Shown here piece after piece: positions 47,601 through 64,000 of a stretch of DNA of 64,000 nucleotides (the stretch's first letter is position 1; every line of letters begins with the position of its first letter). The position numbers and the translations under genes were made by a program. The DNA is from Candidatus Aenigmatarchaeota archaeon. Its GTDB lineage: Archaea > Aenigmatarchaeota > Aenigmatarchaeia > QMZP01. The notes beneath the pieces were generated by a model that had not been told where the DNA came from, made no database searches, and worked only from the letters and a program-made list of their open reading frames with translations. The stretch is taken from assembly GCA_043824495.1 (NCBI GenBank), contig JBDRSV010000010.1, positions 41,995-105,994 of the forward strand, read 5' to 3'.

Positions 47601-50600
47601 GTGATGATGCAATTCTTCTTTCTAGTGGACTTGGAACATGTAGTAATGATGGGTGTAGGGATATTCCTTTTGTTAGCATGGATTGTGGAACTGGGGATGC
47701 TTGTGTGAAGGGAACAGATACAGCAACTTCTGTTCCTACTACTGGATCTTGTTATGGTAATCCTCAAATAGGTGATTCTTGTGATTCAATTGTTGGAGGA
47801 GATTTTTCCCAAGATGGAATTGTCGCATACGGCTTATCTAATAATCTTTGTTCTTGCGAAACTGAATCAATAAGTAATTGTGTTTATTCTACTGGTTCGT
47901 CTGTAATACCAGTTGCATCTTGTAATTATGTTGGGGCACCTGAAGGTAGTGTTTGTAATGAACCCCCTTATGTTGGAGATTTTTATTTTGCCTCTACAAA
48001 AAAATTAGATTCTGATGGAACGAAACATTGTGTTGATTGTGGGACTGGAGTAATAGATGATGATGGGTCTGGAACTTGTGAAAGAGCTTGTGATCTTACT
48101 ATAAGTAACACCTATTGTGATGAGAAAAATCCTGGTTATAAGTATTGTTCTATTAATAATATTATAGAATCAGAATGTGGTGAGGCTAATTTTTGTACTT
48201 ATTTAACTTCTGGGGGAAGTATTGGTCAGTGTTCATCTGTGCCGCCTCCAAATAGTGATGGTGATTGTAATGCTAATTCAAATTGTGATGGTAAAGAGCC
48301 TGGGGGTTGGTGGTGTAGTCTAGATAGTAAAGTGACTGTAGCGTGTACCTCTGCTTGTCAGGTGGTGGATGCTGATGATATTGGAGAGTGTGAGTCTAAT
48401 AATTCTTATAATACTTTTTGTAATGCTGCTCCTGAGTGTGATGAGTTAATTTCTGGAGGTTATTGGTGTGATGCAAATAATTTAATAAGTTCTGGATGTG
48501 GATCTAGTTGTGGGTATACAACTACTGGTACTCCTGGTTCTGGTCTTTGTGAATCTACAAATTCCTATAATACTTGTGCTGCCGATCCCTTATGTGATGG
48601 GAATGTTCCTGGAGAAATAAATAATTGTGGAAACGATCCATTTTTAGATAAATGTTCAAGCACTTGTTTAGCAGAAGATAGGGGGGATAACATTTGTACT
48701 TCCAATGCCGGGTGGAGTTGTACTGCAGATGCTGGTTGTAATTTAGAATCTCCAGATGCTTGTCCTGATATTGATACTTATTGTACAGACATTTGTGGAT
48801 ATGAAGACAGAGATGATTCTCTAACGGCTTGTACTGCTACAGGGGTAGGGTGTGTTGCTGGTTATTCTTGGGAAGTTGGAACTCCTACTAGTCAGTGTTG
48901 TGGAGATGATGGAATCTCTGATGATTGGGATGCTGATAATTTTACAGGAATTACCAATGCTTGCTATAATGGGAATTTGATTTTTCCAGGCACTCCTGTT
49001 GGGACTTTGTTAGTTGATGATTATGGAAAACTTTATGATTGTGGTGATCAGGTTCCTTTCCTTGAGGATCAAGGGGTTGCAGAAAGTATTGTAATTGATT
49101 GTGAAGGGTATGATAGTGGGGGTAGTACTTTTTATTGTGATACTGATACTTTTGAATGGATTGTGGGCAAATTACCAAGAACTTGTATTTGTACTAATGG
49201 GAATCAGTGTAAATCTACTTATTGTGTTGATAATAATAATAATGGTGTGAATGCAACTTGTCAAAATAGTTGTAATGGTGGTTTTGATGGTTATATGTGT
49301 TCTAATGATACAAATGATTTTAATACGGTTGGGGGTGGGGTTTGTGCTGTGAATGGTGGTTGGATTTGTGATAAGGGGGAGGTTGCTTTGGGCACAACTG
49401 ATTATAAACAAGATTGTTTTTATGCTTTGGGTGGAGATCCAACTTTAACAACACAGTGTGATAGGAATGTTTCAGATACGGGGGAGACTTTGGGTTATGT
49501 TGCTGAGAGTATATGCACTTATTCTACTGGAACACCAGCAGCAAATAATATGGATTGCGATTTAGATAATGAGGTTTGTAGAGATTCTTCAAATAGATAC
49601 AGAGCTGATTGTAGTAATTGTGGTAGTACCCTAGAGAATGATTGTGATACTGATGGAGGAACAAGTTATAGTGCTAATGGTGTTTGTGTTTTGGATTCAA
49701 ATAATTGTGATTCTTATGAGGTTTGTTTTGATGATTCGTATTATAGAGATGATTGTAATAAGTGTTCTGTTTTAGCAAGTGATGTTGATTCTTGTGATTA
49801 TGGCTCTATTAGTGGAGGAAATTATGTTGCTGATGGGTATTGTGTTGCAGGAGGAGGGTGTGCTACGGGAATTGTTCGCGCCTATGGAAATCCTCTAACT
49901 CTTGGTTGGGGTTGTACTGATGGTGGTGGTGAGCAGTGCGATTCGGATGCTAATGGTAATGAAAATAGTAATGATTGGGTCACTAATTCTGCTGAAGGAC
50001 TTTGTGTTTATACAGGTCTTGGAGTAGAATTTGGGGATTGTGAGATTGGGGATGTTTGTTTTGATGGGGCGGTTTATCGTGGGGATCTTGTTAATAATTG
50101 TGAAGATGGTTGGGGCTGTGAGTTTAGGAATTTAGAGAGTACTATTTATTCCAGGGAAGGATATGTTTGTAATTCTGAAAGCTTAGGTTGTGTTGTTGAC
50201 GGGTCAAGGACAGAAGCTCAGAGATGTTGCCAGAATGACAATTGTGCTGGTGGTGTTCCTAGCTGTGTTGATAGTGGAATTGTTGATGAAATTTATTACA
50301 AAGGATGCTGCGCCTTGACAACAGATTGTTCAGGACCAACTCAATGCTATTCTGATACAGAGATTTACTATGGTACTTTGAATAATTATTACTGTTATGT
50401 AGGGGCTTGGATAAATAAAACACAATATAATACCTGCACTCCATCGGGAAGTTTTGTTGATTTAGTTATTGACCAACCAGGGATAATATGTAGCGGAGTA
50501 ATAATAGACATTGCTTCTTTAACTGTAAAAAATGAAGGGGAATTAACTTTATTAGACGAATCAGAATTAATCGTAGGAAATGTGACAATCGAGGAAGGTG

Positions 50601-53600
50601 GGAGTTTTTATGTCAAGGACTCGCAGAACACACTCTGGATAAATAGTAATATCACTTTATTCGGGAAAGTTGTCTGGCAAAACACAACAGTCAGGTTCAA
50701 TGGAACTGGAACAGACGGAAGTGTTGGGTTAAAAGTGATTTCTCCGGGAAACCTTACAATAAACCAAAGCTCTAACATCACGAACGGCGTTGATCCAAAC
50801 TATAATTATTTCTTCATTGTGGAGAGTGGAACCAATTTCTCAATGAAAGATTCTCATTTAAGTTATGCTGGGTGGGGTGATTCACAGGGAATAAGAGGAC
50901 TTGAGTTACATGTCAATCCAGATAATTTTTCTGGAAATAATTTAACTAATAATTTTTATGGAGTTTCTCTTTATGCAAATAGTAGTTTGGTGCAAGGAAA
51001 TAACATAAGTAATAATTTTAGGGGAATTTATTTGGGGACTTCGCATAATATTATTTCGGATAACATATTAAATTATAATGGGGATGTTGCGATTCTTTCA
51101 TTTGTAATGCATATTGAAAATAACACTATTTCAAATAACATTGTTGATTATAATGGTTTTGGATTGGTTATTTTTGAGGATTTTGATTATGTTATTTTTA
51201 ATAATAGTTTTAGTAATAATGTGAATGGAATATATGTTTTTGGGGGATTGGGGGGAGATTTTGTAAGAGACCATATTGTTTCCTATAATGTAATTAATAA
51301 TAATTCAGAATTTGGAATTGGTGCTACTAGTAGTAATGCTGGTTTTCTGAATTCTGTGTTTTATAGAAATGTTTTGAAGAATAATTACATTGGAATTGAT
51401 TCTGGAAATAGTATGAACAACAATCTTATATGGGATTCAGTTATTGAAAATAGTTCATATTTAGATTTTCGAATGATAGGTGTTTCAAAAGATAATACAT
51501 TTCTTAATACAACTTTTAATAATAGTCATGTTTCTGTTATAGATACGGCTTATATTATAGTCCAATGGTATTTAGATGCGAATGTGATGGACGAGGATTT
51601 GCTTTCTTTGTCTGGGGCTAATGTCTCTGGCCAGAATACAACAAATTCTTTGATATTCTACAATTTAACAAACTCCTCAGGAAGCGTGTATAGGTTCAAT
51701 GTGACAGATTTCATAAAAAGAAGCGGAAGTGCTGATAACTGGAACAACTACACAATAAACGTAAGCTTGTATGGTTACATTCCACATTCAGAAGAAATTA
51801 ACATATCTAAAAGCACAGTAATGGACATATTATTATACAGAAAACCACCAGAGGCTGTGTTCGTTCCTCCAACACCAGAAAACGGAACCAGGACAATAGG
51901 AAACATTGTTAACATAAACGCTACATTAGATGCCTTTGGGCATCAGCTAGATTCTTCTGTACTTGAATGGGACAATGGAACAGGCCCTCAGAATTATACA
52001 ATGAGTATTGATTCTGAAGTCTCTTCTATATCCATGCAAGTGAATGATGGAGTTGAGTATACATATAAAATCTATGCGAATAACACAAACGGAAATACGG
52101 GAAACAATAGTTTGAGGACGAATATGGAAAATACTCAACCAACACAAACAGATCCAATTATTATTCCTGCAAAACCTTTAACATTTGATAATTTCACATG
52201 TTATAATCAAAGTACTTCAGATGCAGAATCAGATAACGTGACAAATGTTTATAACTGGAAAGTTGATGAAGAGCCTATAGCTGTTCTGAATATGCCATTC
52301 GAAAATAGGAGAGATTCTAATTACACATACAGTGATATTGTTACGGATTATTCTGGTTTCGGAAATGACGGAATCATTGGTGGAGGATATTATGGTAACA
52401 TGTCAAATTGGACACAGTTTGGAATAATTGGGGGAGCATACAATTTCACTCATGGTAACATTACTATACCTCAGAATTCTTCTTTGGTTTTCTATGACGG
52501 ATTTAGCATTGAAGCTTGGATATATCCAGACACAGTTTCGGGAATAAAATATATTTTTACTAATTATCCTGGAGGAAGTTTGTTTGATGGTTTAGTCGTT
52601 CTTAATAGAAACGGTGATAACATTAAATTTGGTTTAGACACTTCTTCGTGTACTTACTATAATTTTGATGGTAATTTTGTTTTAACACCTGGAAACTGGT
52701 ATCATGTAGTTGCAGTGGTTTACAACGCAGATAATATGAGTCTTTTTGTGAATGGGAATTTTGATAATAGCATATCATTTAATAGTAATAACTGTGCTCC
52801 TTACATGGATCAGACAAGTAAAAATTACTCTATTGGAAACACGATCGGAATAGGACCAAATAATTTTGATGGTCTTATTGATAATTTTGTGATTTATAAT
52901 AGAAGTTTAAGTCCAGAACAAATAGCCTTTAATTACCATCAAGGTATAAGTGAATTCTCAAATTCCACAATTACTTCTAGTGAAATACTTCCAGGACAGA
53001 ATTGGACATGTGAAGTCACACCTGTGGACTCTTATGAAAGTGGTGTTATGCTGAACAATATCACAACAATAAACACCCCTCCATTTATACAGGGTGTTAA
53101 TCTGATACCAGATGGTGCATTCACAAATGATACAATTACATGCAACTTTAGTGCGAATGACGATCAAGAAGTAGATGATATTTATGTAAATGTTACCTGG
53201 TGGAGAGATGTTGGGAATGGCTTCGAAGAGTGGCACCATGACGATGAAAATAACTTACTTGTTTATAATAGTGAATCGACGAGAGGCGATATGAATATGG
53301 ACGATGAAGTGAATCAGACGGACGTTGAAAATCTGACTGCATATCTTTTCGGTGGTGGAGGAGAACCTCAACCTCCAGGCGTTGCAGACCTCGATGGTAG
53401 TGGACAAATTGATGCCTTAGACCTGGGAGCTCTAGTCGACATTATCTACAAAGTGTATACAACAACATCTATTGGTGATATAGAAGATGAGAAGACGTTC
53501 CATGATCAAATATGGAAATGCTCTGTAACTGCTTATGACGGTGGTGAATGGTCTGGATGGACGAACTCCAGTCCAGTCACAATAATAAACTATACGTCAG

Positions 53601-56584
53601 CTCTGCAAATAGAACATGATTTTGCCCCTTTAATAAATAAAATGGTTTACTTCAGAGCCAACTACTCGAGCTATCAGATAGGAAATATAGGAAGAATTTT
53701 ATGGAATTTAAGCCAATTAAGTAGCGGGCTTAAAGCAGTTTCCCTTATAGACTTGGATAGAGACAAAATCAAAAATGATATTGTTGCCTTTAGCAACATA
53801 TCGGGTCAGCAAAGTCATCTATATGGTTATTATTATAACGGCAGTCAGAAATTTGATGTGACATTATGGAGACAGGAGCCTATAGAAATTGAATCTGGTA
53901 ACATTTTGGGTAGTATTGAAGATCAGTCTGTGATAGCATTTATTGATGGATCAATAAGTGTGTATGATGGTATTGGTTCGCAGAGATGGACATCTGATGC
54001 GCCACTAGAATCAGAGTCTATACTATATTCTACTGTAACCATCGGAAACTTTGATGCACGTGGCTTTAAAAACGACATGGCAAAAGCATGGGGTAATACT
54101 TCAGGTCATTATGTCACAGTATATAATCTCACTGATGTTGGAATCCATGATACTCTATGGTCAGTACAAATAGTGGGAGATCAAGTGGGATCAGAGACCG
54201 TAGGAAACCTTCAGAACATTGAAATCATGACAGTTGACGTTGATAACGACGGTGATGATGATGTTGTTGTTATAGATAGAAGAGGAGGAGATGTAACGGC
54301 TCTTCTAGGAAACAATGGTTCTGTAATATTCAATGCATCATATTCTGCTTGGAAGAAATCCATGTCTGTAGGAGATATTGACATGGATGGTTATGAAGAT
54401 GATATAATTGTTTCAGGTGGAGGAGAGAGTAGAGTATTCAGGTTTAATGGTTTGTATGATCAGAAATATGGTAGTACCGATAGCATAAGCACAACTACTG
54501 CTCATGCTGGAAACACTTGGGAAACTAGATCATTTAATTATGATAAAGATGGTGTAAAAGGAGAATATGTAGTAACTGATTCTGGAGGCAGCGGAGCTGC
54601 GTATATAAGAGCTTTTGATAATGATAGTAATTCCATATGGACCTATACAATGACATACCCAGACGGCGGTTCTATTATACCATCAATAAGTGTTGGGGAC
54701 ACAAACGATGAGATAGGAGATGATGTTTTCTTCTTTGATGATAGAAATGATAATATTACATTGATTGATAATGAAGGTAATGAGATTTTCGTAATACAAG
54801 AATCGCATGATATTAACGATGTGTATCCAAGCATAGGATCAGAGATGAGTACAGCTCTTGGTGATCTAAATGATGATGGTATAGGTGATCCTATAGTTGT
54901 GTTTGAGGAAGGCGCACTCTACGTATTCCAAACAGGAAACTGTGAGATCAGATTCGATGACGGTAATCAGTCAAACATGACCTGGAACACATATATCAAA
55001 ATGTGGGAGCATGGAAGAACATTCTTAGCAGAAGCTGATTACGATTATAATGTGACATGTAAGAAAGGTGGATACAACGATACCTTTATTCAGGATACTG
55101 TTTCAGTAACAGATTATGAAATTGGATTGACAAAGATATTTAATCCTGGATCAGTGCTTGCTAGAGAGAATGAATTGATTAATGTGACTATATTAGCTGA
55201 AGTTCTTAAGACAGCATATAATGTGACATCAATAAATGTTTCTGATGAAATACCATCAGGATTCACGCCACCCGCTGTGCAAGATGTAAAGGTTGAGTTC
55301 TATGATTATGATGAAGCAGGATTGGTCACAGACATAACAAATGATGTGATTATTACTGTGCAAAACGGAAGAGTAAATGTGACTATATATAACTTAAACA
55401 CAACTGCAGCAAATACACACGGAAGGAAAGGAGATATTGTAAATATAACATATGATACTCTAAGTTCTCTGATGGAACCACAGACGAATATATCGACAGA
55501 GACAAACGCAACGGCATTTGATATCAGAGGGATTTACACAAGAGATGATATTATCACACAAATCAATGCATCCCTTGTTGTACTAAGAGGTTCTAAAAGT
55601 GTGTGGATACCTGATTACTCCAACCCACAAAACATATCAGTTAGAATAGAATTCAAAGCTATTGGTGGTCCAGTGGGAGAAATAGAAATGACTGATTATC
55701 TTCCAGCTGGCGCTGACCTATATAACACAAGAACATTCACATACTACAATAACACAAATAACATAGACATAGATATGGTAGAAGATGATGATTACAAGTT
55801 AGGTGGGATTACACAAACCGTATTACCTGATGGAACATATGTTGATATACATTTCTACAACTTATCAGCAGGAGCAGATAATGTGAGTTGTACAAACTGG
55901 GACTGTTTCATGTATGACAATGATTCAATAATAATAGAGTATAACACAACTGTTCTTGGTGGCGGTAGATGGGAACTTCCTGCAATACTTGGAGGATATG
56001 ACCCTTCATATAACCAACACATCAAGACAGAGATGTACGCATCTGCTAGTATTCCTTCATTCGACGTTGAGGTAGAAACTCTTACACAAATTGTGTCAGA
56101 TCAGGGTGATGTGGTAAAAGCTCTACTCAGAATGATAAATGTGGGTGGTCCAAATGCTAAAGTTGATGTGCATTCTACATATTCCATCAAAACAATGGAT
56201 GGGACTCTGATAAACGAGAGATCTGAAACATTTGCTGTTGTAGAAACAAAGGAGAAAGAATTAAGATTAGCTGTACCTTCTGGAATAGAACCTGGTTTGT
56301 ATGTGTTCGAGGTGTTTGTTACATATACAGGAAGAGAAGCTGTGTCCACAGACACATTCGAAGTTAAAGGTGGAGTAGCTCCAGTGACGCCTGGTGGAGT
56401 GAGTGGACTTGATGATGTATTTAGTTACATATTTGCACTATTGGGTGTTGTAATAGTTGTAATTGTTGTTCTTGTTGTGATAGTTCTAAAGAGAACTGGT
56501 AGAAAAGAGGTAATATATAGAGAGACTCCTTCAAGAGCACCTATTCGAGAGCCTCAAGATTCTGAACCTCGTTCTGAGTATTAG
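44663..56584 (+). CDS. Giant (3973 aa) membrane-anchored surface protein: Cys-rich CDGxDNNCDG repeats, S8 protease, DNRLRE-like domain, long Cys-rich tract, beta-helix, LamG, dockerin, FG-GAP-like propeller, Ig-like domains, C-terminal TM
   Basis: Motifs LDTGVD/HGHGT/GTSAS, IEAWIYP..WYHV, GDMNMD..ADLDGSG and DVDNDGDDD; TM IFALLGVVIVVIVVLVVIVL followed by KR. Confidence 0.85.
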   Translation: MHILVCTINIINTMKYAILVGIILTLVIYAISPITINSQACSDGQIKPCGSNIGACSSGFQTCSAGIWGTCDGGIGPGAEVCDGLDNNCDGKIDEKFDRDGDGYTSCSQPQDCDNVNPKINPEAKETCDGVDNNCNGLVDEECPCVAGETRACGSNIGACQSGVRICSDGQWGACEGNIKPQEEACNSIDDDCDAETDEDGVCIALECQDGETRSCGSNIGICKAGIRTCVSGSWSDCTEDIKPQEEICDNLDNDCDSIVDEGCKQPSQPTKPTTPTKPAADTEKVHQVVLDEISSKAESRVIVKFKETPKSLNIKQTDFKNIRTVDKYQSGVVNKNGLDSLLIDPDIAEILPDQEVNLLLTESIPLIHADLQNYNLGLTGSGQTVCILDTGVDYNIITNYKSGYDFINNDDDPMDDHGHGTQVAYIIQSVAPGSEIIAAKVIDSSGNGYESDVLQGLQYCIDQGADIISFSIGSGEYSGLCDANPVAELVNDAVSQEIFVVAATGNDGSINFKAPSCASKVLSVGSTNKQNIISSFSNVREDLGVFAPGVDIVTKTIGGDDISLSGTSASVPFVSGAAALVLENETLAPLDLRYRFASTGLPILYNEINISRLDVYNAVLNISTMIPYGGELNQSNIIEVNETNFTTLAVPVVSLILPADETYYGSALQDVPFQCYVTDTAEGGVPAGINQISLYTSFDGGAYSLKDTIILAPLLSDLPNYVNNSDGTFTTNYQPPNGTSEKDTFLYWAGTYDFSSSDSLYVAGGQAKWISQPLLEFDLSGFPQGMVVQNANLRMVKKSGTTSFGTQIRRISDSWINGNLTQPYPRDSGSDYASGTIPLSGGDVVIYDVTELVQEWIDGTYPNYGLKIVYTYYTGVSAYLYSAEESIANRRPKLEITYDVDPTYTADFQLDNVVTGSYKWYCSAKDIAGGNSNSVTPFDFYVGKCEKGTDCPSGLCVNDSLGVGRCGDSCDIYDGYGCSDDAILLSSGLGTCSNDGCRDIPFVSMDCGTGDACVKGTDTATSVPTTGSCYGNPQIGDSCDSIVGGDFSQDGIVAYGLSNNLCSCETESISNCVYSTGSSVIPVASCNYVGAPEGSVCNEPPYVGDFYFASTKKLDSDGTKHCVDCGTGVIDDDGSGTCERACDLTISNTYCDEKNPGYKYCSINNIIESECGEANFCTYLTSGGSIGQCSSVPPPNSDGDCNANSNCDGKEPGGWWCSLDSKVTVACTSACQVVDADDIGECESNNSYNTFCNAAPECDELISGGYWCDANNLISSGCGSSCGYTTTGTPGSGLCESTNSYNTCAADPLCDGNVPGEINNCGNDPFLDKCSSTCLAEDRGDNICTSNAGWSCTADAGCNLESPDACPDIDTYCTDICGYEDRDDSLTACTATGVGCVAGYSWEVGTPTSQCCGDDGISDDWDADNFTGITNACYNGNLIFPGTPVGTLLVDDYGKLYDCGDQVPFLEDQGVAESIVIDCEGYDSGGSTFYCDTDTFEWIVGKLPRTCICTNGNQCKSTYCVDNNNNGVNATCQNSCNGGFDGYMCSNDTNDFNTVGGGVCAVNGGWICDKGEVALGTTDYKQDCFYALGGDPTLTTQCDRNVSDTGETLGYVAESICTYSTGTPAANNMDCDLDNEVCRDSSNRYRADCSNCGSTLENDCDTDGGTSYSANGVCVLDSNNCDSYEVCFDDSYYRDDCNKCSVLASDVDSCDYGSISGGNYVADGYCVAGGGCATGIVRAYGNPLTLGWGCTDGGGEQCDSDANGNENSNDWVTNSAEGLCVYTGLGVEFGDCEIGDVCFDGAVYRGDLVNNCEDGWGCEFRNLESTIYSREGYVCNSESLGCVVDGSRTEAQRCCQNDNCAGGVPSCVDSGIVDEIYYKGCCALTTDCSGPTQCYSDTEIYYGTLNNYYCYVGAWINKTQYNTCTPSGSFVDLVIDQPGIICSGVIIDIASLTVKNEGELTLLDESELIVGNVTIEEGGSFYVKDSQNTLWINSNITLFGKVVWQNTTVRFNGTGTDGSVGLKVISPGNLTINQSSNITNGVDPNYNYFFIVESGTNFSMKDSHLSYAGWGDSQGIRGLELHVNPDNFSGNNLTNNFYGVSLYANSSLVQGNNISNNFRGIYLGTSHNIISDNILNYNGDVAILSFVMHIENNTISNNIVDYNGFGLVIFEDFDYVIFNNSFSNNVNGIYVFGGLGGDFVRDHIVSYNVINNNSEFGIGATSSNAGFLNSVFYRNVLKNNYIGIDSGNSMNNNLIWDSVIENSSYLDFRMIGVSKDNTFLNTTFNNSHVSVIDTAYIIVQWYLDANVMDEDLLSLSGANVSGQNTTNSLIFYNLTNSSGSVYRFNVTDFIKRSGSADNWNNYTINVSLYGYIPHSEEINISKSTVMDILLYRKPPEAVFVPPTPENGTRTIGNIVNINATLDAFGHQLDSSVLEWDNGTGPQNYTMSIDSEVSSISMQVNDGVEYTYKIYANNTNGNTGNNSLRTNMENTQPTQTDPIIIPAKPLTFDNFTCYNQSTSDAESDNVTNVYNWKVDEEPIAVLNMPFENRRDSNYTYSDIVTDYSGFGNDGIIGGGYYGNMSNWTQFGIIGGAYNFTHGNITIPQNSSLVFYDGFSIEAWIYPDTVSGIKYIFTNYPGGSLFDGLVVLNRNGDNIKFGLDTSSCTYYNFDGNFVLTPGNWYHVVAVVYNADNMSLFVNGNFDNSISFNSNNCAPYMDQTSKNYSIGNTIGIGPNNFDGLIDNFVIYNRSLSPEQIAFNYHQGISEFSNSTITSSEILPGQNWTCEVTPVDSYESGVMLNNITTINTPPFIQGVNLIPDGAFTNDTITCNFSANDDQEVDDIYVNVTWWRDVGNGFEEWHHDDENNLLVYNSESTRGDMNMDDEVNQTDVENLTAYLFGGGGEPQPPGVADLDGSGQIDALDLGALVDIIYKVYTTTSIGDIEDEKTFHDQIWKCSVTAYDGGEWSGWTNSSPVTIINYTSALQIEHDFAPLINKMVYFRANYSSYQIGNIGRILWNLSQLSSGLKAVSLIDLDRDKIKNDIVAFSNISGQQSHLYGYYYNGSQKFDVTLWRQEPIEIESGNILGSIEDQSVIAFIDGSISVYDGIGSQRWTSDAPLESESILYSTVTIGNFDARGFKNDMAKAWGNTSGHYVTVYNLTDVGIHDTLWSVQIVGDQVGSETVGNLQNIEIMTVDVDNDGDDDVVVIDRRGGDVTALLGNNGSVIFNASYSAWKKSMSVGDIDMDGYEDDIIVSGGGESRVFRFNGLYDQKYGSTDSISTTTAHAGNTWETRSFNYDKDGVKGEYVVTDSGGSGAAYIRAFDNDSNSIWTYTMTYPDGGSIIPSISVGDTNDEIGDDVFFFDDRNDNITLIDNEGNEIFVIQESHDINDVYPSIGSEMSTALGDLNDDGIGDPIVVFEEGALYVFQTGNCEIRFDDGNQSNMTWNTYIKMWEHGRTFLAEADYDYNVTCKKGGYNDTFIQDTVSVTDYEIGLTKIFNPGSVLARENELINVTILAEVLKTAYNVTSINVSDEIPSGFTPPAVQDVKVEFYDYDEAGLVTDITNDVIITVQNGRVNVTIYNLNTTAANTHGRKGDIVNITYDTLSSLMEPQTNISTETNATAFDIRGIYTRDDIITQINASLVVLRGSKSVWIPDYSNPQNISVRIEFKAIGGPVGEIEMTDYLPAGADLYNTRTFTYYNNTNNIDIDMVEDDDYKLGGITQTVLPDGTYVDIHFYNLSAGADNVSCTNWDCFMYDNDSIIIEYNTTVLGGGRWELPAILGGYDPSYNQHIKTEMYASASIPSFDVEVETLTQIVSDQGDVVKALLRMINVGGPNAKVDVHSTYSIKTMDGTLINERSETFAVVETKEKELRLAVPSGIEPGLYVFEVFVTYTGREAVSTDTFEVKGGVAPVTPGGVSGLDDVFSYIFALLGVVIVVIVVLVVIVLKRTGRKEVIYRETPSRAPIREPQDSEPRSEY

Positions 56585-58776
56585 AAATCATCCGTGCTAG
56601 GTGGTCTTCTTCCTGCTTCAGGCATTCCAACATTAAACACTCTGTTATACAAATTTCTGATATGGTCAAAGTAAACAATAGATTCTTGGTACGGTCTTGA
56701 AATCTTTAATTGAGAATAAATTAGAACAGCTCTCTCATACAAATATCTAGCTTCTTCAAAGTCTCTCTGCCTTAAACTATCATTTGCGTGTGCTATCAGA
56801 TCTTCGAATTCTTCTTCAAGGGTTCCTAGTTGTCCGTGCTCTGTTTTTATGTATCTCCTAGGCTTAAGTGGGCTAGATCCTATAATAACAGGTCCAGGCG
56901 ATGTTCTTGAAACTGTCATTGGCTTATCTGGTATTACAGGTACTATCTCTAGTTCTTCTGGTGGTATTGATCCTATTTCTGGTTGAGGTATTTCTCTAAC
57001 CTCTTTCTTAGGAGGAGCATATAGATGTTTAGGTTCCATATGTTCTGGTGAAAGCTCTGGAATATGAGGTAATATAGGCAATTCTTTTTCTAGAGGACCT
57101 GGTCGTGGTTCTTTTCTAGGTGGTTCTCTTAGTCTAGGTTCAGGTGCATATGACTCAATATCACGCAATTTCTTTCTAAGAAGTATCATATCTGATTTCA
57201 TTTGACTTATTTCTTGTCTAGATGAACTTGAAGATGTAACAGTAGGAACTTGATTATCTAAATGATTTTCTATATTTTGTAATCTATTCATGATTTGAAG
57301 GATTTCCTTGCTTTCAGTAGCTCCTGATAATGATTTAGAAGGAATTCTTTCTAGGTTTTGAACCCTTTTGATCAACTCGCCTATTATAGATTCGAAATCT
57401 CCTGGATTCTTAATCTCACCAGAAACAGCTGGATAATTGTTGTATCTTTCTATTTCTTTTACTCTGGATTCTAAATCGTTTCTAGTTTTCTCCACCCTAG
57501 ATTCTAATTCATCCTTAGCTTTACTTATGTTCTCTAACTCATTTTTCAGCAGCTGTTCATACTCTTCTGGAAGCCTTTTATCTGATTTTGCTGTCTCAAC
57601 TTTTTGTATCCTAGATCTCGTGTCTTGCATGTTTTTTCTGATTTCATCTAACCTCTTTGTCATATCTTCTATTTCTTTTCTAGATGCGAAGTCTTTGTTA
57701 ATCTTGACTACTCCCTTTTCTATATCTTTGAATCCCTTCTCTTTCATTGTTTTCACGAGTTTTTGCATTAAGTCCTTCATATCCTGGACTTTATCATCAT
57801 AAGCTATGTGTATGTTCTTCAATCTATCATCTATATCAGTTAAGTCATCCTTGTTAGCTGTTTTATCTAATTTAATTTCTATCAAATCTACGGATTTCAT
57901 AATCTCATTAAGCATGTCTTTGTTCAGTTCTATTTGCTCTTTGTATTTCCTGAACTCTTTTAGTGTTTTATTAGATTCAGAGAACATACTTTCTACTTTT
58001 CCAGCTTCTCTTGCCATATATTTCTTGTCGCTTTCAATCTCATTGAGTTTCTTCTGCATTTCATCAAAAACACTAATTATGTTCTCAAAACTTCTAATCT
58101 TTGCTAGAATGTCTCTCAAGCTTTTGCTATCTTCTGTTATTTTATTTGTTTTGAGTTCAAGACTCTCTAATTTGGCTTGATCTTTAAGTATGATTTCATT
58201 TATCTGCTCTAGACCTTTAATTACTTTTTCAGGCTTTACTTCATCTATTATATCCTTCATTTTGCTGTAGCCGCTTTCTATTTTATTGAAGGTTCTTTCT
58301 CTCTCTAAAAGAGCTGATCTAAGCTCTCCTATCTCTTCAGCTAGCCTGGATAGTCTCTCATCACCAGCTGCTCTCTGACTATCTAGAGATTCTAACTTGC
58401 CTTCGAGCTTCTCCACCTTGAAAAGTAGTTCGTCCAGGTTTCCGCTTCTTGGACTCTCTTTTTTCTGTTCAACATCTTCGTCTTTCTTGCTAAATAAACC
58501 AAACTTCTTCTTTTTCTCTTCTTTCTCAAGATCTTTGAATTCTTCTTGGCTGATTACGTTTTCCTCTTCTTTGATATTTTCTTGTGGCTCTATGGCTGGT
58601 TTAGCTTTCTTTTTCTTAGAACCCTTTGGCTCTTTCTTTTCAATTGTATCGCCTGTGTTCATTATCGCTTCTTTTATGTCTTCTAATTCTGTAGAATCCT
58701 TCCTTCCCTTCTTCTTTGCTTTTTTCAAAGCTTCTTCCAGTTCTCTATTAACTTCTTCGTCTACCATCGATATCAA
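56581..58776 (-). CDS. Long cytoplasmic coiled-coil protein with Pro-rich linker and terminal helical bundle
   Basis: K/E-rich heptads over ~400 aa, a PEP-rich tract and no TM; overlaps the upstream gene's stop. Confidence 0.75.
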   Translation of the reverse strand: MISMVDEEVNRELEEALKKAKKKGRKDSTELEDIKEAIMNTGDTIEKKEPKGSKKKKAKPAIEPQENIKEEENVISQEEFKDLEKEEKKKKFGLFSKKDEDVEQKKESPRSGNLDELLFKVEKLEGKLESLDSQRAAGDERLSRLAEEIGELRSALLERERTFNKIESGYSKMKDIIDEVKPEKVIKGLEQINEIILKDQAKLESLELKTNKITEDSKSLRDILAKIRSFENIISVFDEMQKKLNEIESDKKYMAREAGKVESMFSESNKTLKEFRKYKEQIELNKDMLNEIMKSVDLIEIKLDKTANKDDLTDIDDRLKNIHIAYDDKVQDMKDLMQKLVKTMKEKGFKDIEKGVVKINKDFASRKEIEDMTKRLDEIRKNMQDTRSRIQKVETAKSDKRLPEEYEQLLKNELENISKAKDELESRVEKTRNDLESRVKEIERYNNYPAVSGEIKNPGDFESIIGELIKRVQNLERIPSKSLSGATESKEILQIMNRLQNIENHLDNQVPTVTSSSSSRQEISQMKSDMILLRKKLRDIESYAPEPRLREPPRKEPRPGPLEKELPILPHIPELSPEHMEPKHLYAPPKKEVREIPQPEIGSIPPEELEIVPVIPDKPMTVSRTSPGPVIIGSSPLKPRRYIKTEHGQLGTLEEEFEDLIAHANDSLRQRDFEEARYLYERAVLIYSQLKISRPYQESIVYFDHIRNLYNRVFNVGMPEAGRRPPSTDDF

Positions 58777-61700
58777 CTAGGCTTCTTTTTATTAATACTT
58801 AAATGTTCTTCTAGCGAGGTTATATATATTTTGGCCATTCTGAACCTACCAAGCTTTAATTTGTCTTTAGCAAGCTTTACTTCTAATGAAACATCAAATA
58901 TGTCTTGTCCCTTAGCTTTCATTTCTGCTACCTTTTGTTCTACTACTTCTAATCTCTTTGTGAATTCCTTGTATATCTCCATTTCCTCGTTAGTAATTTT
59001 ATGTGGGTTATGCCACGTTGGTCTGAAGTTCACAAAGTATGGTTTACCATCATTATACTTAGGATTTTGAATCATTCCCACACCTATTGCTTGTCTGGAA
59101 ATTCTTTGAGCAAACTCTGATCCATACTTCTCTTCTACTTTCTTAATGTCTGACAATGACTTTGTATTGAGCTGTATATCTGTTAATATGTTACCTGCGA
59201 TAGCTTCCTTAAAGTCTGTGAGTACTTGAGAACACATGACTATTCCTATTCCCCACTTACGGAACTCTCTGGCAGCCTTCTCTAACCAGATATAACCACC
59301 TTTACCGCCGTATTTCTCGAGTAATCTGTGGACCTCATCAAATACTATGAGCATCCTCAAGCTTGTTGATTCTTCCCATCTAACCTTAAACATGGAGGAT
59401 ATAATGTCTTGTACTGCTTGATCATATTCTCCTGGTTTAAGCTTGTCAAGAGTGAATACTGTGATTTCACCAGGATTCATGTATTTCTTGATGTCAAGTC
59501 CCATCTTAGGTTGGGTTACTTCGAAAATCATACCTTTGTAAGGTCTTACATTTAGTTTATCCATACCAAACTTTGGATAGTGTTTTAGAAGATTATCATC
59601 TTTCAATGCCTTTACAAATCCTGTCCATTGTGATGTTGGATCGAATACGATTACTGGTATTTTTCTATCTAATGCTTCTTCAACAAATACAGAAGCTGCT
59701 ACGCTCTTTCCTGCTCCTGTTGATCCTGCAATAATCACATGTGTTGTTAAGTCGTCTAGATTGAACCATGCCTTTTTCTTTGTTTCAGCTACATTACCTA
59801 TCCAGAATGTTCTCTCATCTGGTTGTGGAAGTTTCTTGTAGTTAAGAGGGAACACGTATCTAGCCTTTGATTTCTTCCATTTTATGTATCTCTTTCGTCC
59901 AAAATATCCGCCAGCTCCGGCTACAATCAATATGATTGCTATTATGATTATTCTTCCTATCAGGGAATCCCAGAATGATTCAACAACATCGAAGACTTCT
60001 ATATCTTTCACTGATTGTGTTTCACCAAAATCTGCCCATACCTCAAGGAAGTAATTACCAAGAGGTATTTGTAATCCTCTAAGTCCTATGGTTTTTATGA
60101 AATTTTCTGTGTCTATAATTTCAATTACTTCACTCTCTTGTTTTACTATTTCTTCTGTATCACCTTTTTTCAGTATGTATGTGAGTGTGATGTTAAATCT
60201 GTCTTTGAATCCAGTGTTCTTCAGATCCACTCCGAATTTAAGATCACCTTCAGGGCTGATACTCTTTGTAATAATATCTATTATCATGCTTAAGGAACTG
60301 TCGCCTTCTATGCTTGTTCTTAGGATTATAGGAATTTCTTGTGTCTTTCCATCTGCTGATACTGTTAATACACCTGTGTATACACCAGGCTCTGTGTTCC
60401 TTGGAACTAGTACTAACGCTTCCAATGTTTCGCTTTGATTCATATCAAGATTGAATATATCTTTTTCCAAGAAGATGAAGTTACTAACTTCTCCTGTAAC
60501 TGATAGAGAGACAGCTAGATCTCTCTGAATAACATTTGTAACTGTAATTGTGTGGGTCTTGTTCTCTCCTATATGCATCCTAATGTCACCTAGGCTTGTT
60601 TTAACTGTGAATGGGAATTGAAGACAATCTGTAGCACAGTTTAGTGTGTTTTCTCCTGTTTCACATATCCCATTACCACAAGTAGCTGTTTTATCTGTTG
60701 TGCTAGGAGGTGTTGATCCGCCTCCTCCGCCTGTATTTGAAGTTCCTGTTGGAGTAGGTGGTGATACTTCACCACAAGATAATCCTCTACACCATTCAGC
60801 TAGAGCGTAAGAAGACGTTGAAGTCAATGTGAAAGACATTGTGTTTGCAGCTACATCTATATTTGTGTCATCTATTCCTGAAACCATTACAAAGCTATCT
60901 GAACATGTTCTGCTATCCAAATTCCATGCTCCACATCTGAATACTCTTATGTATGTTTCAGGTATTGCCTTTCCTATATCATTGAGTGCTTGTGTATAGT
61001 CAATCACTAAGTTTATGTTTGAGTATGAGACTGAAGAGGGTTCAATTACAACAGCCAACAGAATATTTCTTGCTGCATCAGGAGCATCAGCAGGTAAAGC
61101 TATGTTTCCTATATCTGTAGAATCGTTCAGTGTTACAGTGTCGAATATGAATGAATTTGTTAGGTTATCAGCATCTGTTGAGTTGTGTTGTAGTAGAAGA
61201 GAAGCTAACACATCAAATGAATTGAATGTTATAAAGTGGTTGTTCAATTCAAATTCTGCATCATAAGATCTCTTTCTCGCTGAGAATGTGTACAAGCCCT
61301 GAGTTGAATCAGCTTCAAATGTGTGTATTAGATCAGATGTTCCTGGTTTGTAGAAGATTATGTTCATTGTTTTATTGTCTCCATCAGGATCTGTTGTGTT
61401 TATGATCAAGTTTACTGGTATGTATACATCAAACCAGCCTGTTGTGCTATTCGCTTGTCCTAATGTATCATTTGCAAATACATGAATTGTATACTCAGTT
61501 GCAACATTTGGATTGTTGAATGTGAATCTATACTCGTTTCCAAATATTGCATCATACGTAGGTATTGTTACATTAACTCCGGAATATTCTACTATTACCC
61601 AAGCATTGTCAATAGCTGTGTTATCTGTTATATTTACTCTGATTTCTATTGTTGGTACTGAAGCAGCTTGGTCTACAGATGTTGCTGATACACCAGAGAA

Positions 61701-64000
61701 TTGTGGAGGTGTAACATCTACATATTTTATAGCATTGGACTCTTCATCAGATAATGTCATTCCGTTTATTGGTGTGTAATTTCCAATCACTCTCAAATCT
61801 GTGTTTATAGGATTGCCTTGTATGAACGGAGCACTACAATTAAGCCACCATGTTTGTGCGAGCACAATTGGTGGTGTTGTAGATACACATTCCTCACTTT
61901 CTATCTCTACGCGCCAGATCATACTGTCGGTTATAGGGACTTCATCGAATGTAGAATTTATCTGTATGTTTATCTCGGTCCCGTTATTGACATTAGTCTG
62001 TGGGGCTAGACTAGTTGGTAAAAGTATATCAACGCGTAAGTTTATGATATCTAGTGAGACAGAGACATTCTTTTGTGTCGGTGTTGCTCCGTCATTGTTT
62101 GTTATTGTAACGTTGGCAATGTATGTTCCGGTTGAAGCGGTTGTAGCATTATGGTGAATAGCTAAGTTGGTTGAACTTAGATTTTGTACATCAAAGTTTG
62201 AAGCACCTGCTGTTATGTTACCTGAACTATTTCCTGTTACGGTTGTATCAAAGTTCAGATCTTGATTGATGTTATTTGTGACTAGAACATTTCCTATTGT
62301 TCCACTAATACTTCCTATTCCAATGGTTCCTGTTAGTGTTTCAGGTGTGATGAACCAGTCTTGTTCTGTTACTGTTAAGTTTAGGAAGAATGCATCCCAA
62401 CAATCAGATTCTGGGAAGCAGGAAGATCCTGTAGCGTTTGCTCTTATGTAAATATAATACGTGTCTAGCGAAGCATTTAGAGGAAGAGTTGCAAACAATT
62501 GTACAAATGTATTTCCATTTTTTGAGATTGTTGTTATGTCAGTTGGTGTGAACTCCAAACTCCATGACAATAATTCAGAAGTGTTTGGTCCATATACATC
62601 GAAGACAATCGAAGATATTGGTGTGTTTCCGAAAGCTTCTACTGTGAAGTTTGCTATATTAGTTCTTGCTCCTATTGGTGCTGTAGAAATTACATTGGAC
62701 TCTACTATGTTAAGCACTGTAGTAGGGTCTATAACAACTGTTGTGTTGTTGTAAGCTAATCCCTTTGTTACATCACCATTTGTCCACTCAGCGCTTATGT
62801 TTATTAATTCTGAACCGATGTTTGCATAAGCTGTGACATTTATTTCACTTGATGTTGCACATGTGGATTGTGCTGCTATAGAAGTGCATGTTGCTGGTGT
62901 TGAATAGATGCCAGTAAGTGTTGGGATAGTTATTACAGGATTAAACATGGTTTCATCCCCTGTGTTGTTTATTATTAAATCAATTGTGAATGTGTAATTA
63001 GAATCTAATTTCAAATTAGTTGCAGTTTCTGTTACAGGTAATTGTATCAAGTCTCCGGTTGTGTTTCCTGTGGTTATGTTTATTTGAATTGTATCATTAT
63101 TGTCTGGTGTTGCATCATAGAATATTGAAGCATCAGCTACAATTCTACATTCTATGTTATGTATACCACCTTGGTCTGTTGAATTCAGCCATAGGAACCT
63201 GCTCCATCCTGTTGTGTTTGTTTGACTTGAACCTATGTAAGAAGCATCAGAATAGAAGCTGACATTATGCTTCTCCACCGCACTACCAGAGTCTTCATCA
63301 CTAATATCACAATATAGATCAATTGATGAATTACCCATACATTTTATTTGACCTAGGTTAATGCATCCATCAGAATATAGATCAATTGCTGTTACGCTGC
63401 TCCTTCCGAATAAATAGAATGGAATTTGGTTTGATCCTGTCTCATACAAATCTCCCCACGCATCTGCTTTTGCACTTCTAACACCAGGAGTTTCATTGGA
63501 TGGTATTTGCCATGTTGTATTTTCCGTGTTGCTGATTGTAGTCTCTGTCACAAAGTTTATTGTGTTAGAATCACCTGATGTGTAACTTAAACAATTACCT
63601 GCAGTATCAGCTATGCATATGTAATCTATGTAAACATGAGAAGCTTGTGTACCAGATCCTCCATTACCTTCGTCATGAACTGTTATAGTAAGTGAAGTTG
63701 CTGTTTGGAATCCAGTGTCATTACAAAAAGTTGTGTTCCATATTGCTGATCCTTGTGAAATAGGGGATCCTGATGGATTGATATTACATGTTCCTGTTCC
63801 TCCAGTTATTGTTATGTAAGAACCATCACCATATGTTCCCCAAGCTTTGTAATGTACTTTAAGGTAGTTTGATCCGATCACTGGGACATTCTGTGATGCT
63901 GTTTTGTAGCTTCCATCAACTATTTCCTGAGCTGATAAGTATAACGAGTAATCTTCAGTGTCTGCTTCAGTTGATATAATACAATTACAGTTTGCATCAT
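58773..64000 (-). CDS. Large surface (Ig/S-layer-like) protein with TM helix and cytoplasmic HerA/VirB4-like P-loop ATPase; 5' end lies outside the window
   Basis: Thr/Asn-rich ectodomain, TM IIIIAIILIVAGAGGYFGRK, THVIIAGSTGAGKS, LIVFDEVH and REFRKWGIG..SQ. The frame stays open to position 63998. Confidence 0.85.
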   Translation of the reverse strand, partial: DANCNCIISTEADTEDYSLYLSAQEIVDGSYKTASQNVPVIGSNYLKVHYKAWGTYGDGSYITITGGTGTCNINPSGSPISQGSAIWNTTFCNDTGFQTATSLTITVHDEGNGGSGTQASHVYIDYICIADTAGNCLSYTSGDSNTINFVTETTISNTENTTWQIPSNETPGVRSAKADAWGDLYETGSNQIPFYLFGRSSVTAIDLYSDGCINLGQIKCMGNSSIDLYCDISDEDSGSAVEKHNVSFYSDASYIGSSQTNTTGWSRFLWLNSTDQGGIHNIECRIVADASIFYDATPDNNDTIQINITTGNTTGDLIQLPVTETATNLKLDSNYTFTIDLIINNTGDETMFNPVITIPTLTGIYSTPATCTSIAAQSTCATSSEINVTAYANIGSELINISAEWTNGDVTKGLAYNNTTVVIDPTTVLNIVESNVISTAPIGARTNIANFTVEAFGNTPISSIVFDVYGPNTSELLSWSLEFTPTDITTISKNGNTFVQLFATLPLNASLDTYYIYIRANATGSSCFPESDCWDAFFLNLTVTEQDWFITPETLTGTIGIGSISGTIGNVLVTNNINQDLNFDTTVTGNSSGNITAGASNFDVQNLSSTNLAIHHNATTASTGTYIANVTITNNDGATPTQKNVSVSLDIINLRVDILLPTSLAPQTNVNNGTEINIQINSTFDEVPITDSMIWRVEIESEECVSTTPPIVLAQTWWLNCSAPFIQGNPINTDLRVIGNYTPINGMTLSDEESNAIKYVDVTPPQFSGVSATSVDQAASVPTIEIRVNITDNTAIDNAWVIVEYSGVNVTIPTYDAIFGNEYRFTFNNPNVATEYTIHVFANDTLGQANSTTGWFDVYIPVNLIINTTDPDGDNKTMNIIFYKPGTSDLIHTFEADSTQGLYTFSARKRSYDAEFELNNHFITFNSFDVLASLLLQHNSTDADNLTNSFIFDTVTLNDSTDIGNIALPADAPDAARNILLAVVIEPSSVSYSNINLVIDYTQALNDIGKAIPETYIRVFRCGAWNLDSRTCSDSFVMVSGIDDTNIDVAANTMSFTLTSTSSYALAEWCRGLSCGEVSPPTPTGTSNTGGGGGSTPPSTTDKTATCGNGICETGENTLNCATDCLQFPFTVKTSLGDIRMHIGENKTHTITVTNVIQRDLAVSLSVTGEVSNFIFLEKDIFNLDMNQSETLEALVLVPRNTEPGVYTGVLTVSADGKTQEIPIILRTSIEGDSSLSMIIDIITKSISPEGDLKFGVDLKNTGFKDRFNITLTYILKKGDTEEIVKQESEVIEIIDTENFIKTIGLRGLQIPLGNYFLEVWADFGETQSVKDIEVFDVVESFWDSLIGRIIIIAIILIVAGAGGYFGRKRYIKWKKSKARYVFPLNYKKLPQPDERTFWIGNVAETKKKAWFNLDDLTTHVIIAGSTGAGKSVAASVFVEEALDRKIPVIVFDPTSQWTGFVKALKDDNLLKHYPKFGMDKLNVRPYKGMIFEVTQPKMGLDIKKYMNPGEITVFTLDKLKPGEYDQAVQDIISSMFKVRWEESTSLRMLIVFDEVHRLLEKYGGKGGYIWLEKAAREFRKWGIGIVMCSQVLTDFKEAIAGNILTDIQLNTKSLSDIKKVEEKYGSEFAQRISRQAIGVGMIQNPKYNDGKPYFVNFRPTWHNPHKITNEEMEIYKEFTKRLEVVEQKVAEMKAKGQDIFDVSLEVKLAKDKLKLGRFRMAKIYITSLEEHLSINKKKPS

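Follow-up and report, generated by a model that had tools for sequence, protein, structure and literature searches.

What does an archaeal cell gain from a giant surface protein that continues, through a single membrane helix, into a HerA-like ATPase? The question is raised by one end of a 64,000-nt stretch of DNA (the window) from a Candidatus Aenigmatarchaeota archaeon (GenBank assembly GCA_043824495.1, contig JBDRSV010000010.1, positions 41,995 to 105,994 of the forward strand), where such a gene (gene A) is followed by one for a long coiled-coil protein (gene B). The initial annotation of the window knew of no characterised system with this architecture. The architecture is in fact already published, as SPEARE or giant membrane-anchored extracellular proteins (PMC6642349; PMC10266531), and functionally it is still uncharacterised. 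Hamm 2019 described very long nanohaloarchaeal proteins, mostly extracytoplasmic and with a transmembrane (TM) helix towards the C-terminus, read the conserved intracellular part as a type III restriction enzyme, reported similar sequences in Woesearchaeota, Aenigmarchaeota, Micrarchaeota and Altiarchaeales, and detected the protein by proteomics (PMC6642349). In the re-annotation of Reva 2023 the intracellular part became a VirB4/TraG-like ATPase with a coiled-coil tip behind it; that study also recorded another ATPase gene downstream, put forward a 'straw' resembling a type IV secretion system (T4SS), and published giant proteins of 9,409 aa for SVXNc and 8,880 aa for BNXNv (PMC10266531). 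Here, we find that genes A and B are very probably one copy of a widespread archaeal two-gene module, of which gene A is the SPEARE-type member, cut by the contig end. The parts of the module are listed below in window coordinates; A1 is an alignment of 30 TM-plus-ATPase modules from gene A relatives, and A2 is the alignment of the partner core.

58773..63998, minus strand: gene A, giant surface protein of the SPEARE type, HerA-like ATPase at its C-terminus, 5'-cut by the contig end (open reading frame and translation)
59979..63998, minus strand: ectodomain part, residues 1-1340 as seen, Thr/Ser/Asn-rich and adhesin-like in composition, with 44 N-glycosylation sequons
59895..59978, minus strand: single TM helix, residues 1341-1368 (hydropathy; sequence not conserved in the family)
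58992..59894, minus strand: Lys/Arg-rich juxtamembrane linker and RecA-like core of the HerA clade, residues 1369-1669 (AlphaFold2 model, fold matches, Pfam)
59703..59726, minus strand: Walker A, GSTGAGKS, residues 1425-1432 (A1 invariants G96, T98, G99, G101 and K102)
59334..59339, minus strand: Walker B acidic pair, D1554/E1555 (D225 and E226 invariant in A1)
59226..59270, minus strand: REFRKWG...SQ motif, residues 1577-1591 (R248, R251, S261 and Q262 invariant in A1)
58776..58991, minus strand: C-terminal helical region, residues 1670-1741 (K..K.G.F....IY signature; model helices 341-366, 372-386 and 390-403)
56581..58776, minus strand: gene B, cytoplasmic coiled-coil partner, 731 aa from a TTG start or 728 aa from an ATG at 58767, no TM helix
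57742..58464, minus strand: conserved partner core, residues ~105-345, with invariant G150 and R153 in EEIGELR (profile over 68 partners, A2)
56617..57144, minus strand: variable Pro-rich linker (~545-650) and C-terminal helical domain of ~70 aa (651-720), occupancy 0.72-0.76

The linkage of the two genes was followed in 82 related loci holding 7,271 open reading frames (ORFs), with a partner profile built from gene B relatives. This profile matches 75 ORFs, 65 of them right after an ATPase gene and 10 with one gene in between (at L036, one of these 10, on the minus strand), and none elsewhere. Counted by locus, the partner is gene +1 in 62 of 82 and gene +2 in 10; all-against-all clustering recovers it in one of these two places in 73 loci, and most of the others have no downstream sequence. 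The gene that intervenes when the partner is at +2 is a short second ATPase paralogue or a coiled-coil-like protein of ~300 aa, and a locus that has a giant and a short ATPase paralogue side by side still has only one partner. The same pattern is seen across a sample of 151 genomes of the phylum (89 high-quality): the ATPase module is present in 76, the partner in 77, both in 74 and neither in 72, with the ATPase lacking a partner in 2 genomes (one at a contig end) and weak partner-only matches in 3. The sampled genomes are related, so that these counts are non-independent trials; the pattern spans 47 genera. The partner is thus inherited with gene A almost without exception, and conservation of the gene pair, which the initial annotation had set as a test, is borne out in 74 of the 76 ATPase-positive genomes. 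A Rosetta-stone search of 128 family representatives returned no ATPase-partner fusion, as none matched the partner profile, and their C-terminal extensions are acidic low-complexity tails. Complex prediction with the ATPase part (A1 40-412) and the partner core (A2) scored 0.00 in two runs, which is evidence neither way.

Several loci vary on this arrangement. Tandem paralogues at L076, L083, L021, L027 and in genome G152 comprise a giant ATPase gene, a short one of ~620-700 aa (1,393 aa at L027) and the single partner. At five loci (L044:11209-12024, L032:11193-12203, L038:6488-7438, L059:7687-8646 and L062:11196-12113), which include Ca. Hydrothermarchaeum profundi, an extra gene of ~270-340 aa lies between ATPase and partner; it has no confident Pfam match and shows weak coiled-coil-type matches in L032 and L062, and it may be a second, diverged partner. 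In a genome without the ATPase module, a short partner-like match with three stop codons (G021:C13:33497-33787) may be the remnant of a lost module.

Gene A itself is incomplete. Its frame reaches the window end, which is also the contig end (assembly of 1.01 Mb in 29 contigs, 80% complete), without a 5'-side stop, and 1741 codons are read where ~2,950-2,970 are expected from relatives. The first residue seen pairs with residue 1227 of the 2972-aa relative P0003, and the two proteins are colinear from there to the C-terminus, with 52% identity overall and 76% in the ATPase part. By this colinearity the copy would therefore lack ~1,226 N-terminal residues; when its N-terminal half was sought across the 80%-complete assembly, just one chance-level match (E 7e-4) was found. 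In full-length relatives the chain opens with a signal peptide and N-terminal PQQ-type beta-propellers (Pfam) and has one TM helix ~400 residues from the C-terminus; the colinear P0003 has both the signal peptide and the propellers.

What remains of gene A confirms, as initially annotated, a single chain in which one TM helix joins a large ectodomain to an intact P-loop ATPase. Hydropathy yields one hydrophobic segment, residues 1341-1368, and the stretch that follows it is rich in Lys and Arg (RKRYIKWKKSKAR). All 44 N-X-S/T sequons lie upstream of this helix and 0 downstream, Cys makes up 1.8% of residues ahead of it versus 0.3% behind, and the cytoplasmic portion of 373 residues is Lys-rich. 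The sequons, the Cys content and the Lys/Arg-rich inner side fit the predicted outside-in topology, with the ATPase in the cytoplasm, which upholds the orientation first proposed. The label 'Ig/S-layer-like' given to the outer region was looser: an ectodomain of more than 1300 aa is there, but in the part seen Pfam gives only weak matches. Neither an S8 domain nor a nuclease domain was found in that part with Pfam or NCBIfam.

The intracellular end is far more constrained than the helix that carries it. Mean column identity in A1 is 62%, with the Walker A, Walker B, R...R and SQ positions invariant, and by these intact motifs the ATPase looks catalytically competent. A loop after Walker B, KYGGKGGY, is specific to the family (G235, G236, G238, G239 and Y240 invariant, Y234 90% conserved), and the C-terminal signature has its own invariants (K384, K386, G388, F390, I395 and Y396); these C-terminal helices are the 'coiled-coil tip' in the description of the published giant proteins (PMC10266531). 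The TM stretch, in contrast, has zero invariant or 90%-conserved columns in the 30 modules. Against the invariant catalytic motifs, a helix without one conserved position looks like a plain anchor rather than a pore. An AlphaFold2 model of the module (predicted local distance difference test score, pLDDT, 87) consists of a long TM helix, a short beta-hairpin, the RecA-like core and three C-terminal helices, and the ATPase lies within ~20-25 residues of the membrane.

The assignment to a HerA/VirB4-like ATPase, made in the initial annotation from motifs, is supported by both profile and fold comparisons. In a PDB profile search the best match is HerA of S. solfataricus (4d2i, 4.5e-11), whose ARE-GRK-G...SQ aligns with the REFRKWG...SQ of gene A, and the top Foldseek matches of the module model are all HerA, including Sir2-HerA and DUF4297-HerA. 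VIA-align ranks HerA 4d2i first (Z 25.0, 254 residues aligned, root mean square deviation 3.1), followed by the DndH C-domain (Z 23.9), VirB4 (4ag5, Z 22.3), TrwB (1e9r, Z 17.8), FtsK (Z 17.0) and EccC (Z 16.6). DUF87 and HerA_C of Pfam match all 30 A1 modules, AAA_10 matches 27, and FtsK_SpoIIIE and TrwB_AAD_bind match 24 each; in the window protein DUF87 is above the cut-off at 2.3e-10. The NCBIfam HerA equivalogs are far under theirs (NF040937, 32.5 bits versus 800; NF040819, 16.8 versus 970), as is CedD (NF053655), which matches the P-loop region alone with 37.7 bits versus 600. By sequence and modelled fold the ATPase is thus nearest to HerA, with VirB4 behind, and it forms a distinct, compact, membrane-tethered branch in the HerA/VirB4 part of the FtsK-HerA superfamily.

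The long cytoplasmic coiled coil described as the next gene is confirmed in gene B, which encodes 731 aa with no TM helix and gives a model of three long helices. The reported overlap with the stop of gene A holds for the TTG start (4 nt) and fails for the alternative ATG, which lies 5 nt past that stop and is where the database copy begins (728 aa); with either start the two genes are operon-like. The genes downstream of two gene A relatives are homologous to gene B, at 48% identity (E 3e-106) and 29% (E 7e-36). In the AlphaFold2 model the partner core forms helices of 65, 125 and 44 residues with a low predicted template modelling score (pTM), as expected for an elongated coiled coil that would need partners. 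A variable middle separates the core from the linker, and the C-terminal helical domain is kept in roughly three quarters of members; the C-terminal part of gene B is 38% identical to the same part of the partner at L002, the locus of the closest relative. No database family accounts for gene B: Pfam has no match at E 0.01, NCBIfam and PADLOC give SMC/Rad50/LmuB/JetC-type coiled-coil noise alone, the PDB profile yields designed or generic coiled coils alone, and the protein atlas unnamed archaeal clusters alone. The C-terminal domain of the partner (56617-56826, minus strand) and the ATPase tip (58776-58991) share an A...L..G/D.F..A..(I/L)Y...L helical-hairpin pattern that recalls TPR and MIT repeats. 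We reduced an MIT/TPR-like reading of the two to a lead, as Pfam TPR is sub-threshold on the partner (E 0.002-0.19); the tip has no Pfam TPR match, and MIT matches neither the tip nor the partner domain.

The module is not confined to the organism of the window. A word search returned 536 gene A relatives, with lengths clustering near 2,200 and 2,950 aa and named sources that include Aenigmatarchaeota, Nanohaloarchaea, Anstonellales and 'DPANN'. An exhaustive profile search (E<=1e-30, clustering at 50% identity) gave 406 clusters; their proteins range from 356 to 7,878 aa, and the module is matched nearly always end to end at the C-terminus. Species-representative genomes hold at least 569 matching stretches. 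Within the phylum sample, 44 of the 89 high-quality genomes carry the module, and positive genomes have 1-3 copies, the longest open frame being 14,526 codons. The family is not limited to DPANN: a 10,846-codon module frame lies on a 1.9-Mb contig of Ca. Hydrothermarchaeum profundi (2.2-Mb genome), another of 11,081 codons is found in a metagenome-assembled genome (MAG) of Hydrothermarchaeales, and a 1.7-Mb MAG labelled Methanosarcinales has six copies, arranged as three giant-plus-short pairs. The presence of the family in Hydrothermarchaeota argues that its basic function is not DPANN-specific. The host-feeding role suggested in the initial annotation is weakened by the Hydrothermarchaeum genome and the other MAGs without a DPANN label.

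The published giant proteins belong to the same family. The A1 profile was run over 70 genomes of the phylum to which a Nanohalobium MAG belongs, and matched a 9,439-aa frame at 2.2e-185 and an 8,891-aa frame at 1.7e-186, each followed by a short paralogue of ~620-660 aa. On their lengths we assign these frames, putatively, to SVXNc of Ca. Nanohalococcus occultus and BNXNv of Ca. Nanohalovita haloferacivicina. The partner follows the short paralogue in both of these putative genomes and in a genome of 1,118,574 bp with copies of 8,596, 677 and 3,488 codons (E 1e-42 to 1e-50). The section of Reva 2023 that deals with the giant proteins does not mention a coiled-coil partner gene (PMC10266531). 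The family was not found in literature on HerA or DUF87 in DPANN, and archaeal 'dark matter' papers do not describe it.

Two further observations concern the extremes of the family. Frames of 13,200-14,526 codons that end in the ATPase module occur in ~1-Mb genomes of the phylum (G096, at G096:C3:21546-22778, and G061, G024, G141 and G029); they would be among the largest archaeal proteins, each at ~4% of its genome. Some members extend past the ATPase in long acidic low-complexity tails, as in P0239 (residues 965-1347) and P0248 (residues 430-684), and in the P0239 tail a small module marked by an F..HV....N.FADWIE signature occurs twice; these acidic-tailed members are probably from halophiles.

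How could such a module work? In the arrangement we favour, gene A would be a Sec-exported, glycosylated protein whose adhesin-like ectodomain, of ~2,550 aa in full-length relatives, is held by a single non-conserved TM anchor with the ATPase directly beneath the membrane. If they behave like their homologues HerA, FtsK and TrwB, the ATPase domains would form a ring under the membrane and thereby gather several surface arms at one attachment site. The ring would spend ATP on a cytoplasmic polymer, perhaps DNA or protein arriving at the cell-cell contact, perhaps the coiled-coil partner itself, and the partner would bind directly to serve as scaffold, adaptor or track. The TM helices would tether alone, and membrane passage would need a component outside the conserved module. 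The initial annotation had instead pictured six giant chains bundled around a channel. This picture finds no support: the TM helix has no conserved column and occurs once per chain, and clustering of the 82 neighbourhoods revealed no conserved multipass membrane protein, channel, pilin, nuclease or type IV secretion component beside the module. The single unconserved helix and the missing conserved membrane partner argue against the chains themselves as the conduit.

Taken together, a two-gene SPEARE module of this anatomy is an explanation that we regard as likely. Its stated version, with a ring under the membrane spending ATP on a cytoplasmic polymer and the partner as scaffold, adaptor or track, is more tentative, and we would put it somewhat below an even chance. 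Several points weigh against it. The usual HerA-clade enzyme works on DNA with a nuclease at its side (NurA, Sir2 or DUF4297), and no nuclease accompanies the module, either by Pfam in the window or in the 82 neighbourhoods. We know of no HerA-family enzyme that works on a coiled-coil protein. The substrate proposed for any family member and the ring itself are predictions, and the ectodomain content of gene A is taken from relatives, because the N-terminal half of this copy is missing. What the rival readings below leave of the odds falls to a generic ring-plus-scaffold arrangement, whatever its substrate.

In the published straw the giant protein is taken to be both the channel and the ATPase through which a T4SS-like injector would send effectors into the host cell (PMC10266531). 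The fold of the ATPase is close to the VirB4 ATPase domain 4ag5, AAA_10, TrwB_AAD_bind and T4SS-DNA_transf give weak Pfam matches in 22-27 of the 30 modules, and the chain is anchored in the membrane much as coupling proteins are. HerA nevertheless outscores VirB4 by sequence and by fold, and the VirB4 N-terminal domain (PF03135) was not found in the gene A protein with Pfam; nor did the organism's own genome give a match to this domain or to TrbL/VirB6, at a completeness of 80% that does not establish absence. With no conserved channel, pilin or multipass gene beside the module in 82 loci, an unconserved TM helix, ectodomains of beta-propellers and Ig-like repeats that are not known as conduits, and the family's presence in a 2.2-Mb Hydrothermarchaeum genome, we consider the straw improbable. 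A contact-dependent DNA translocase in the manner of FtsK, TraB or Ced, with the ring pumping DNA in or out where the adhesin holds another cell, has somewhat more in its favour and still seems doubtful. The closest solved relatives (HerA, DndH, TrwB and FtsK) all act on DNA, the ring would stand ~20-25 residues off the membrane, a largely invariant Gly-rich loop with K and Y follows Walker B, and the P-loop is weakly similar to CedD. Yet the module has no membrane pore and one unconserved TM helix per chain, it is accompanied by neither a nuclease nor a DNA-binding partner, CedD reaches 37.7 bits where 600 are required, and the strictly conserved partner is a coiled coil and not a DNA-processing protein.

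That partner is what speaks for a device of force or positioning, in which the adhesins would be clustered, held or moved from a cytoskeleton-like platform made of ring and partner. It would work rather as in Mycoplasma mobile, where an internal ATPase drives giant surface legs. A long coiled-coil protein inherited almost obligately with the motor, a lone partner even at loci with tandem giant and short ATPase paralogues, a TM helix that is a plain tether, and a hypervariable ectodomain against a 62%-identical motor all point this way; the HerA clade offers no precedent and the idea is drawn purely from anatomy, and we judge it about as doubtful as the DNA translocase. The more specific proposal that ring and partner are a new transmembrane actuator, in which the ring grips or moves along the ~2-nm-wide coiled coil and six TM tethers pull, cluster or release adhesins, is unlikely, if a shade less so than the straw. 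Two further readings we reject. The original SPEARE reading as a cytoplasmic restriction endonuclease that degrades imported DNA (Hamm 2019, PMC6642349) goes back to ResIII, which Pfam places on residues 1413-1561 of the window protein and in 24 of 30 modules, a match that reproduces the origin of 'RE' in the name. In the window protein it is sub-threshold (17.4-21.2 bits versus a cut-off of 22.5) and covers a P-loop helicase-type core alone, and no nuclease domain was found with Pfam or NCBIfam, the same conclusion as in Reva 2023 (PMC10266531); we give this reading hardly any credence. An anti-virus HerA system is scarcely better placed. PADLOC matches mad8 (9.7e-18) and several defence HerA models, and Sir2-HerA and DUF4297-HerA are among the solved relatives, but no effector gene is linked in 82 loci, the giant glycosylated ectodomain is unlike any defence HerA, and half of the sampled genomes of the phylum have the module, with 1-3 ATPase copies each, as do several other archaeal lineages.

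The two-gene module matters beyond this locus. Some of its genes rank with the largest in archaea (14,526 codons in the longest frame from ~1-Mb genomes of the phylum), and a single one may occupy several percent of a reduced genome. The giant proteins are leading candidates for how DPANN cells hold and exploit hosts, and the hypotheses are now narrowed to a defined pair that can be tested: a HerA-like motor on a tether TM helix and a coiled coil inherited with the motor in 74 of 76 genomes.

One more large gene stands next to the pair.

44663..56584, plus strand: gene C, surface protein of 3973 aa, convergent on gene B, with a C-terminal TM anchor and no ATPase (Pfam)

Pfam finds S8 protease, CBM96, LamG, dockerin and FG-GAP domains in gene C, which is homologous to the convergent 2463-aa neighbour at L002. 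Large secreted proteins of this kind are the only other recurrent cluster near the module. They occur at 24 of 82 loci in all; 14 loci have one in convergent orientation at +2, and 14 placements at -1/-2 are same-strand. Gene C accompanies the module loosely and does not belong to its core. S8 and LamG, which here and at L002 sit in the separate, tail-to-tail gene C, were reported inside the SPEARE chain in Ca. Nanohaloarchaeum antarcticus.

Set against known systems, gene A stands closest to the SPEARE proteins NAR1_1133, SVXNc_0300 and BNXNv_0298 (NAR1_1133 compared by description). These have a Sec signal, PQQ-type propellers and a long Ig-like ectodomain, as do the full-length relatives of gene A, and they share with gene A one TM helix near the C-terminus and, in the cytoplasm, a conserved P-loop ATPase that ends in a helical tip; the mostly extracytoplasmic topology with one TM helix on the C-terminal side and a cytoplasmic C-terminus is found in gene A as well. 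Gene A differs in its size class of ~2,950 aa, in being a truncated copy and in having no short ATPase paralogue ahead of the partner. S8 protease and LamG belong to the same chain in SPEARE, whereas in the window they are in the separate convergent gene C; the S8 and nuclease features are not present in the part of gene A seen, and PMC10266531 argues that they are not real family features.

With HerA (4d2i), gene A has in common Walker A and B, the ARE-R-K-G motif, the SQ sensor and a HerA-like fold. Unlike HerA (4d2i; HerA-NurA; Sir2-HerA), it has a TM tether in place of the soluble N-terminal domain, a much more compact core of ~300 aa, no nuclease partner, coiled-coil and surface proteins as neighbours, and scores that do not reach the equivalog cut-offs. 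VirB4 and the type IV coupling proteins (4ag5; TrwB 1e9r; TcpA) have the same superfamily fold, and the coupling proteins the same attachment by an N-terminal TM helix, but gene A has no VirB4 N-domain and no all-alpha domain. EccC/EssC of type VII secretion and FtsK/SpoIIIE are of the same superfamily (Z 15-17), membrane-anchored, and move protein or DNA at the membrane; they have at least two TM helices, several ATPase or gamma domains and no giant ectodomain, and Pfam FtsK_SpoIIIE was below the cut-off on two neighbouring paralogue modules checked singly. Similarity to CedD of the Ced system does not reach equivalog level. To the SPEARE proteins as published, the present analysis adds the HerA assignment, the TM helix as a plain tether, the near-obligate partner and the spread beyond DPANN, which are useful refinements of a known architecture.

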